From positions 47,551,803 to 47,615,802 of the forward strand of contig JASCQW010000112.1 in NCBI GenBank assembly GCA_030264375.1: a DNA stretch of 64,000 nt. Reading direction: 5' to 3'. How positions within the stretch are numbered: the stretch's first letter is position 1; each line of letters begins with the position of its first letter. Positions 1 through 57,107 of the stretch are shown here, piece after piece. The position numbers and the translations under genes are program-made. The notes beneath the pieces are model-generated. The model ran no database searches, had not been told where the DNA came from, and saw nothing but the letters and a program-made list of their open reading frames with translations. The stretch comes from Carcharhinus longimanus (taxonomy: Eukaryota).

Positions 1-187
1 CACAACACCAGGTTAGAGTCCAACCAGTTTATTTGATAGTAATCTCACAAGCTTTCGGAAATGGTGTTCCTTCGTCAGGTGAGAACATTCCATATACCTG
101 ACAAAGGAACACTGTTTCTGAAAGCTTGTGGGATTACTATCAAATAAACAGGCTGGACTTTAACCTGATATTGTGAGACTTCTTACA
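1..187. mobile_element. Palindromic Penelope-derived non-autonomous element (family A), truncated by the window start
   Basis: Arms ~1-80 and ~96-176 are reverse complements (cacaacaccaggttagagtccaacc... / ...ggctggactttaacctgatattgtg). The same sequence forms the terminus of the GIY-YIG-coding PLE at 56308-56420. Confidence 0.8.
43..84 (-). ncRNA. Minimal type I hammerhead ribozyme motif (PLE type)
   Basis: The minus strand reads UCUCAC-CUGACGA-A-GGAA-cacc au-UUCC-GAAA-GC-UU-GUGAGA: 6-bp helix I, CUGANGA core, 4-bp helix II, GAAA, palindromic AAGCUU in place of helix III, CUU triplet. Activity is not demonstrated. Confidence 0.7.
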
Positions 188-15318: not shown

Positions 15319-16142
15319 GGCAGTGCATTTTTTTTTGCCATGTGCTTTTTAAATTGTCGTCCTGTCATGATATCCATTACTGACATTAGTGAGGTACAGT
15401 TGATTATTGCTACCACAGGGGTGTGACCCATGAAGTTTAATTGTGGATCTTATACTGTGCTTCCGAATTAACATTAGATGAATGTTAACAATAAAGTCCT
15501 ATTGTCCTACATGTGTTCTTAATCAGCAGTGTTGGCATATACCAGCGGTATCAGTGCTTCCCTGTGAAACAAGTTAGAAAGTGTTTCAAAATTAATCAGG
15601 CAAAGGAACAAAACTTTGCCAGTACACCAGTAATAATTTTATCTAAAGCTTTATTTTGAAAGCTTCCCTATGCATGACTTAAAAACAATCACACTTTGAT
15701 GGTTACTGAGGGTTGATTTTAACTAGCAGCTTGTTTGTAGCAGGTGGGAGTGTGGGGCTGGTTATAAAAGAGAGCTTGGTGTGTGGTTCAAACCATTGTT
15801 ACCTCCTGACCAACTTATTTGAATTCCAGCCAAAACCATCAGGAGTAAAGTCAAGGCTGGAGGTTAGGAGCCAAAGTGTTTTTAAGGTCTCTTCCTCTTT
15901 ACTGCCCATTTCAACAACATGCAGTATGCACAGTGAACACATCTTCCAATTGTCCCGTGAAGTTTCACTGTGAGTCCTACATACATGATAAAATCTTGAT
16001 TTTCTTTTATTAGTAATTCAGGTATTTCCCTGGGCTATCCAAAGTAAGACCCCCAGTAAATATGGTGGCAGAATAGTAATGAAGCAGGTGAAGTAATGCA
16101 CAATGATTTTAACTCCTTTAATGTCTTGTCACCACCAGCTGG

Positions 16143-16263
16143 AAGTCCCACAACACCAGGTTAAAGTCCTACTAATTTATTTGACAGTAAACCTACAAAC
16201 TTTCGGAAACTCTGTTCCTTCATCAGGTGTGTGGAACTTTCAATGCCGGATCTCCACATCATG
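16143..16263. mobile_element. PLE-derived family A copy, internally deleted; hammerhead core on the minus strand
   Basis: cacaacaccaggttaaagtcc...tttcggaaactctgttccttcatcaggtg; minus strand CUGAUGA-A-GGAA-cagagu-UUCC-GAAA. Ends in atctccacatca, the reverse complement of the PLE terminus at 56308. Confidence 0.7.
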
Positions 16264-31693: not shown

Positions 31694-31728
31694 TCCCAGA
31701 GCTAAGAGATGCTTTTTATCCTTGACAG

Positions 31729-32211
31729 GATCGAGAAAGTGACGGAGAACAACATGACGGTCAAGAAGGTGCCGATAAAAATCGTCCGGTCGGAGAGCCA
31801 GACGGAGAAGGAAAGCCGGCACAACCTCCTGAACAGCGTGGGCCCGGCGGGCTTCGCTGACCAGGAGCGGGCGGAGCGCATCGGCACCTGCCAGCACCCT
31901 CACTCCCTCTTTGCGGCCTACTCCAGACAGGAGGCCGGCCTGAGCGCCGGGCCGGCTGAGGCGGCAGCCGGCAGCGCGAGGGGGAGCGAGGAGAGGAGCG
32001 TCGAGGACATCAAGTCGGAGGAACTGGCCAGGGAGATCGTCGACAAGGACCGCTCCCTGGCCGACATTTTGTACCCGAACTCCAAGATGAAAACCACCAT
32101 GGATTTGATGGAAGGAATATTCCCCAAAGACGACACCTTCTTGCAGGAAGCACAACAACGCAGGAAACTGCCCCCCAGCCGATCTTATTCACCCAAGCTG
32201 ACGGAGGAAAG
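31729..32211 (+). CDS. shroom2: Shroom2 (APXL) internal coding exon, region preceding/entering the ASD2 domain
   Basis: Acceptor ctttttatccttgacAG (AG 31727-28) and donor AG|GTAAGG (GT 32212-13); 483 nt, phase 2-2, no stops. The translation RIEKVTENNMTVKKVPIKIVRSESQTEKESR...[57 protein letters not shown]...SPKLTEER closely matches human SHROOM2 as I recall it ([31 protein letters not shown]...[36 protein letters not shown]). Confidence 0.92.
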
Positions 32212-32244
32212 GTAAGGACGTGGATTAATGGTGGAATCCCTACC

Positions 32245-39996: not shown

Positions 39997-40122
39997 ACAG
40001 TGAGAAGTCTCACAAAACCAGGTTAAAACTCAACAGGTTTATTTGGAATCATGAGCTTTTGGAGTGCTGCTTCTTCATTGGTGAGTGATGAAGCAGCGCT
40101 CTGAAAGCTCATGACTCCAAAT
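39997..40122. mobile_element. PLE-derived family A palindrome, degenerate
   Basis: agaagtctcacaaaaccaggttaaa... followed by the inverted repeat atttggaatcatgagcttttggagtgctgcttc / gaagcagcgctctgaaagctcatgactccaaat (40041-40122). Confidence 0.75.
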
Positions 40123-56307: not shown

Positions 56308-57107
56308 TGATGTGGAGACGCCAATGTTGGACTGGGGTAGGCACAGTTAGAAGTCTCACAACACCAGGTTAAAGTCCAACTGATTTATTTGGAATCACAA
56401 GCTCTTTCATCAGGTGAGTGGTCAGTTCCCAAACACGACATATATAGGCACAATTGCAAAATTGGAATGTGAAGAATGGTTGGAATGCAAGTCTGTAAAG
56501 GTAGTCAAGTTTTACAGGTATGAACAGTGTGCGTGGAGAGATGGATGATTACAGGTTAAAGAGGTGTGAATTGTCTCAAGCCAGGACAGTTAGTAGAATT
56601 TTGCAAATGGTGGGGGATACATGTAGTGTGACACGAAACAAGATCCCAATTGAGGCTGTCCTCATACGTGTAGAACTTGGCTATCAGCTCTTGCTCGATA
56701 TTCTGCATTGTTGTGTGTCTTGAAGGCCACCATGGAGACCCAAAGATTGGACGCTAAATGACCTTGACTGCTGAAGTGTTCCCCGACTGGAAGGGAACAC
56801 TCCTGCCTGGTGATTGTCGAGCGCAGCAAATTAACCAGCCTTTAGGAGAACAGTGACCACAACACCACACAACCCTGCCACAGTAACCTCTGCAAGACGT
56901 GCCAGATCATCGACATGGATGCCATCACCACACGTGAGAACACCGTCCACCAGGTACATGACACATACTCATGCGACTCGGCCAATGTTGTCTACTTGAT
57001 ATGCTGCAGGAAAGGATGTCCTGAGACATGGTACATCGGCGAGACCATGCAGACATTACGACAACTGATGAACGGACATCGCTTGACAATCACCAGGCAG
57101 GAGTGCT
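56308..57107. mobile_element. Penelope-like retroelement 3' fragment (GIY-YIG endonuclease), internally inverted
   Basis: Plus strand 56822-57105: ...TTQPCHSNLCKTCQIIDMD...YSCDSANVVYLICCRKGCPETWYIGETMQTLRQLMNGHRLTITRQEC (VVY..YIGET = GIY-YIG; one in-frame stop). The continuation RSTITRQECSLPVGEHFSSQGH and the 3' terminus are on the minus strand, 56823 down to 56308. Confidence 0.9.

Follow-up and report, generated by a model that had tools for sequence, protein, structure and literature searches.

Insertions made of an inverted, 5'-truncated copy with an optional tail are a published pattern of Penelope-like elements (PLEs; PMC3846280, PMC8969392), and the inverted-pLTR architecture itself has already been published (PMC3846280, PMC8557442). 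PLEs have also been reported to carry opposed hammerhead pairs "close to each other" (100-700 bp), and the minimal hammerheads of metazoans are described as cleaving not at all as monomers and weakly as dimers (PMC4209133). For an Anolis PLE, the ribozyme is described as requiring protein, as being abolished by a substitution at G8 (G8C) and as dispensable for insertion in vitro; reverse transcription starts at two sites bounding the tail, and the template is uncut (PMC11167929). The pLTRs of Adineta have a TATA sequence about 20 bp from an initiator-like site (PMC3846280). The Neptune and Nematis groups are defined by a DKG motif, a CX2-5CxxC linker and a Cys pair between GIY and YIG with a His downstream, and the role of the hammerhead in PLEs is called unclear (PMC8557442); PMC6155905, where it touches the subject, merely restates the link between hammerheads and PLEs. 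We saw no cartilaginous fish among the hammerhead hosts in the text of PMC4209133, and our literature search, which covered neither Repbase and Dfam nor the supplements of PMC4209133 and 10.64898/2026.07.22.740005, found no paper on the present PLE family in cartilaginous fish.

The locus considered here opens a 64-kb stretch of the Carcharhinus longimanus genome (the window). It is a genuine and ordinary palindrome: two back-to-back ribozyme-bearing ends of a common Penelope-type element. Its arms (1-80 and 96-175) form an inverted repeat with 88% complementarity, in agreement with the original prediction of a head-to-head palindrome with two opposed minimal type I hammerheads, whose cores lie only about 20 nt apart. 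The palindrome thus stood, but its proposed extent of 1..187 did not: on the right the element stops at 186, and on the left it continues past the window start. Because the genome reads N directly left of that point, the left end, the tail and the target-site duplication of this copy are not visible. Positions along the pLTR are counted from a family anchor, in which C3 is -38 and the ribozyme cut falls before -8. The left arm (1..81, minus strand) is a pLTR copy read from 81 to 1; it has its 5' end 3 nt upstream of C3 (at -41) and its 3' end beyond the window start. It differs from the majority of 40 sampled arms at 3 of 81 nt and is 97.5% identical to the 3' pLTR of the most complete parent copy, L069. 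The right arm (82..186, plus strand) is 86.7% identical to the same pLTR. The bimodal 3' ends of the family and its hotspot of 5' ends identify it as a tail-less copy: it ends at the tail-less boundary CTTCTTAC and begins at -54, inside the truncation hotspot. The junction of the arms is 81/82. Downstream of its ribozyme lies AATAAA (143..148, plus strand), a putative polyadenylation hexamer mirrored at 28-33 on the minus strand. The two arms differ from each other at two of five diagnostic subfamily sites, both by transitions.

A first-look search of the 2.68-Gb genome with the stretch gave 4,545 candidates. A 24-nt anchor had 3,474 exact genome matches and its reversed control none; the intact-core pattern had 9,490 and its reversed control none, which places the latter far above chance. 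Copies of the family reach upstream to varying lengths, leading up to the element L069, in which an inverted tail-less pLTR is followed by RT, linker, endonuclease and a second pLTR that carries the ribozyme, AATAAA and the tail. Identity of the window arms to the two L069 pLTRs is 86-98%, and the proposed PLE-terminus foldback, with its minimal type I hammerheads, is borne out by this element and by the covariation of helix II. L069 encodes the DKG motif (as KPADKGG), a CX4CxxC linker (CHSNLCKTC) and endonuclease motifs (VVYLIRCRKGC..IGET, with two Cys between the GIY- and YIG-like motifs, and a downstream His in EHFSGH). Its RT scores below the cut-off for RVT_1 (E 3e-4), and peptides from all three regions match GIY-YIG-bearing loci (tblastn E down to 6e-24); searches of Pfam, NCBIfam and PDB returned no named match for its endonuclease or thumb. 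Since the L069 copy is broken and gapped and its endonuclease region is unscored by Pfam and NCBIfam, assignment to a clade rests on motifs, by which the parent is an EN+ PLE of Neptune/Nematis type. By the tests made, the window copy is a truncated EN+ PLE insertion with an inverted pLTR. A first GIY-YIG search returned eight loci, none with this pLTR. Two other GIY-YIG PLE families (L031 and L032) lie on short contigs and have long open frames and minimal hammerheads of their own, and some long PLE copies (L069:3648-4094, L132, L133) show further internal inversions beside the inverted pLTR.

We then asked how insertions of this family are built. The 3' end could be read in 87 of 96 arms taken in genome order, and the ends were bimodal: 37 lay at +51..+60 and 34 at +84..+90, that is, tail-less or with a 36-nt tail. 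The two classes fit the two initiation sites of the Anolis element. In 30 inverted pairs, the tail was on one arm in 18, on both in 1 and on neither in 3; the other 8 had a shortened arm. The family therefore presents 5' truncation, an inverted copy and an optional tail, with the right arm of the window copy tail-less, and the arms of its palindromes range from a few bases to kilobases. Shared sequence of at least 7 nt across the ends, a candidate target-site duplication, was seen in 7 of 20 single-arm copies, compared with 0 of 20 controls; 2 of those 7 are element-internal.

Contigs carrying the right flank under three organism labels start at 171-175, within the right end of the element, and differ from the window at 0 positions, at 15 positions in about 1030 and at 13 in about 620, which weakly suggests that the insertion may be older than the split of those three organisms. 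RNA-run contigs from another organism (X1) contained copies of the pLTR family and gave no cover of 201-1200. The window holds further pieces of such elements: a further copy of this pLTR, which has a hammerhead motif and is fused to an inverted tail piece (16142-16236, minus strand); a longer PLE remnant (56308-57105) with the tail, part of the pLTR and an endonuclease fragment in inverted pieces, 77% identical in amino acids to L069; and an older palindromic stub of a sister family (39999-40100; helix II GGAGC/GCUCC). At 31706-32212 (plus strand) lies a probable coding exon with a GT donor at its end; its peptide, which we take to resemble SHROOM proteins, had no significant match in a PDB search. 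If the palindrome lies within an intron of that gene, the dead arm would be the sense one in the pre-mRNA.

Could either ribozyme fold and cut? The minimal type I hammerhead with the intact core lies on the minus strand (43..84). Read from 84 to 43, it is UCUCAC-CUGACGA-A-GGAA-caccau-UUCC-GAAA-GCUU-GUGAGA, an exact match to the predicted sequence, both core boxes included. It consists of CUGACGA (78-72), an extra A (71), helix II (GGAA/UUCC; 70-67/60-57), GAAA (56-53) and GCUU (52-49). The palindrome AGCU stands in place of helix III, the predicted cut is between 49 and 48, and the parental part of helix I is 81-79/48-46. Its identification is based on sequence, fold and helix II covariation among subfamilies: the core agrees with CUGANGA, GAAA and NUH and has the extra base and G10.1-C11.1, and the motif folded alone forms helices I and II at -10.9 kcal/mol (z -2.5), a value matched by 3 of 200 shuffles. 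The plus arm, in contrast, fails at G8 and C11.1. This degraded hammerhead (95..131, plus strand) has the expected CUGACAA at 98-104, with G8A at 103; further changes are C11.1U (119) and, in helix I, C-to-U substitutions. The segment 92-131 folds with a z of -0.13, and the motif is predicted to be inactive. A transcript of either strand does carry one sense hammerhead motif, as had been proposed. The "perfect helix I" of the minus motif fared less well: the 6-bp pairing is present, but it is a junction chimera, a by-product of arm joining, and not a feature of the family. Only CAC/GUG is parental; the UCU that lengthens the helix to 6 bp across 81/82 is supplied by the right arm, being antisense to its opening bases (82..84, plus strand), where the parent sequence diverges. 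The helix I conserved in the family is 3 bp long, as in 28 of 30 same-subfamily motifs. Rfam, which does not model the minimal hammerhead form, gave no match at gathering score across the whole window; its 11 matches to 1-400 at E<=10 include no hammerhead family.

In fold predictions for the full palindrome RNA, the hairpin reached -114.0 kcal/mol versus -71.8 kcal/mol with the ribozyme enforced, and the pairing probabilities of the ribozyme helices were 0.0. The anticipated competition between hairpin and ribozyme is thus won by the hairpin by about 42 kcal/mol. Transcription of a head-to-head pair always yields the complement first and the sense motif second, and in read-through RNA of the window copy a hairpin of about 80 bp is predicted to block the ribozyme.

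Is the palindrome copied as a unit, or is its mirror half made anew at each insertion? The window junction has a single match in the genome. Of 96 unique head-to-head pairs found, 63 carried the anchor of this subfamily; their junctions vary widely, and their partner arms share subfamily letters at the five sites in 34/35, 41/49, 47/54, 50/55 and 46/49 cases, compared with 21-36 expected. Arms are also more similar to their partner (0.920) than to other copies (0.900). Unique and varied junctions, together with the likeness of partner arms, therefore indicate that the mirror half is likely rebuilt at each insertion, apparently from one template lineage; gene conversion, or two RNAs derived from one master, could also account for the concordance. 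The original prediction had raised a self-processing RNA mobile unit. A corresponding rival reading is a non-autonomous palindromic element that spreads as a unit, is processed by its own ribozyme and is mobilised by PLE proteins. Such an element would accord with the many palindromes of about 200 bp among the first-look candidates and with the recurrence of some junction types (three alike among 100 of 348 matches listed), and non-autonomous PLE derivatives and retrozymes have been published (PMC8557442; 10.64898/2026.07.22.740005). Fixed left and right arms copied as a unit, however, would give the reverse of the partner likeness seen. The junctions do not suit a unit either, the sense ribozyme is made after its complement with a pairing probability of zero, and arm lengths are continuous up to the RT/endonuclease element, with the core lost at a neutral rate. 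The copy is an inverted pair with one dead core and a unique junction, not a head-to-tail tandem, and failed as a retrozyme or fixed unit. We regard this explanation as largely refuted and very unlikely.

Selection on the ribozyme is visible at the level of subfamilies. In helix II, Watson-Crick pairing holds at pair 3 for 26 of 28 motifs (A-U in 17, G-C in 9) and at pair 4 for 23 of 28; 0 of 5000 shuffles reach this covariation, although the motifs are related copies and independent events are overstated. The covariation between subfamilies shows selection in master elements. Helix I pairs 4-6 were no better than shuffles in the 28 motifs (the first three pairs are fixed by the search pattern), so that of the covariation check proposed for both helices, helix II passed and helix I beyond 3 bp did not. 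Among 40 dispersed arms, non-CpG core positions were conserved in 340 of 360 cases (94.4%) and flanking positions in 901 of 960 (93.9%), contrary to the expectation of a core conserved above its flanks; the CpG positions G8 and G12 were conserved in 58 of 80 (72.5%). Because core and flank are similarly conserved, the dispersed copies decay neutrally. In three copies, an identical deletion removes the 8 nt that follow the predicted cut; it is bounded by TT repeats and probably arose by slippage. The matches concerned are G000:C112:56508894 and others, e.g., C133:37788224, C190:72687335 and C6047:2216.

These data bear on whether the host has kept the minus-arm ribozyme, or uses the hairpin as a small-RNA precursor or editing substrate. 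The intact core, the 6-bp helix I, the mere 3 differences in the left arm and the older shared insertion suggested by the three-organism contigs that span the right end into the flank would all suit a host role. Yet the "apparently intact" core, although real, is unremarkable, being intact by chance in 8 of the 40 dispersed arms as well; the additional pairs of helix I arose by accident at the junction, the opposite arm carries a dead core, and the Rfam matches to miRNA models, which any long hairpin would yield, score far short of the gathering threshold. We hold a host role to be highly improbable, and the window locus is likely without function. A MITE-like DNA transposon, with the arms as terminal inverted repeats and the ribozyme as a chance look-alike, would be short, palindromic and abundant with fixed outer ends as seen here, but is scarcely credible given the variable 5' truncation, one-sided tail, single-arm copies, apparent duplications of variable length and helix II covariation, and is refuted by the continuity of the arms with the 3' end of an RT element.

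The 5' ends of the copies did not cluster at the scissile bond: a hand tally (83 matches, with 7 internal deletions set aside and some ends uncertain by 1-3 nt) placed the end at -8 in 6 of 76 truncated copies, and a script did so in 2 of 30 fetched loci. Apparent ends at 0 to -12 numbered 11, 2, 5, 7, 7, 9, 4, 5, 6, 3, 4, 5 and 8 in the 76 copies, and the interval -1..-14 was slightly raised (1.09% per nt). The absence of such a footprint does not mean that the ribozyme never cuts. Ends were instead concentrated at -47..-56, with 20 ends or 5.0% per nt versus 0.6-0.75% in four other intervals (about 7-fold; arms L119 and L145 were left out as over-extended alignments). By hand tally, 62 ends lay at -50..-56 and 2 at -57/-58 among 100 of 348 matches listed. 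This hotspot lies 12-18 nt upstream of the core. Since it includes single-arm copies, annealing at the imperfect palindrome GAACCTTC is not its whole cause. Its site, TCAGAAC, is initiator-like by comparison with the initiator consensus and follows a TATA-like box by about 20 nt. On these sequence features, there is an even chance that the hotspot marks the 5' end of the RNA; microhomology or pausing is a less probable source, and a splice site an unlikely one. The intron reading would draw on a 75-nt GT..CAG stretch ending at -53, but is weakened because a genome search allowing one mismatch found 0 matches to a spliced copy and because donor and acceptor are lost in several copies and sister families.

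We conclude that the locus consists of two head-to-head pLTR copies and is very probably a single, severely 5'-truncated insertion of a PLE of putative Neptune type, now in functionless decay. We infer that the element protein would reverse-transcribe uncut RNA of a single lineage, starting at each of the two tail boundaries. Synthesis of either product would end prematurely, usually at a point 12-18 nt upstream of the core that is probably the 5' end of the RNA; repair would then join the two truncated products head-to-head. Selection acted on the ribozyme in master elements, in which cleavage likely requires a dimer or the help of protein. More tentatively, the stubs can be read as Penelope strong-stop DNA, with starts at the 5' pLTR tail boundaries of one uncut RNA and run-off at a transcription start 12-18 nt upstream of the core. 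If so, thousands of junctions would map the start site of the element, and the templates for integration would never have been cut by the ribozyme. The residual value of the family is its junction record: it offers a fossil record for inverted-copy formation and for the hammerhead role in PLEs, and the one-lineage arms, the discrete 5'-end site upstream of the core and the lack of a scissile-bond peak bear on both.

Among known systems, Pen2a_Av of Adineta (PMC3846280; scheme in the legend of Fig. 2 of PMC8557442) is described with the same head-to-head, inverted, 5'-truncated pLTR, a tail of 30-40 bp at one end and a TATA sequence about 20 bp from the initiator-like site; its variable duplications have putative counterparts here. 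In the present family, unlike there, nearly all of the body is absent, which leaves just the two ends, and stubs of this kind number in the thousands in one genome. With the metazoan PLE hammerheads reported in PMC4209133, the motifs share the core boxes, the extra base between 9 and 10.1, G10.1-C11.1 and a palindromic 15.2-16.2 without helix III; helices I and II are 3 bp and 4-5 bp here, compared with 4-5 and 7-8 bp in Schistosoma, and the cores lie closer together than in the opposed pairs of that report. The Poseidon element of Anolis carolinensis (PMC11167929) has two RT start sites bounding the tail that match the two 3'-end classes here, and no ends are seen at the ribozyme site in either; unlike it, the parent here has the CX2-5CxxC linker of Neptune/Nematis. 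The animal non-LTR retrozymes described in 10.64898/2026.07.22.740005 are likewise non-coding, pLTR-derived and equipped with a type I hammerhead, but they are head-to-tail tandems able to form an active dimer, whereas the window copy is an inverted pair in which one core is dead.
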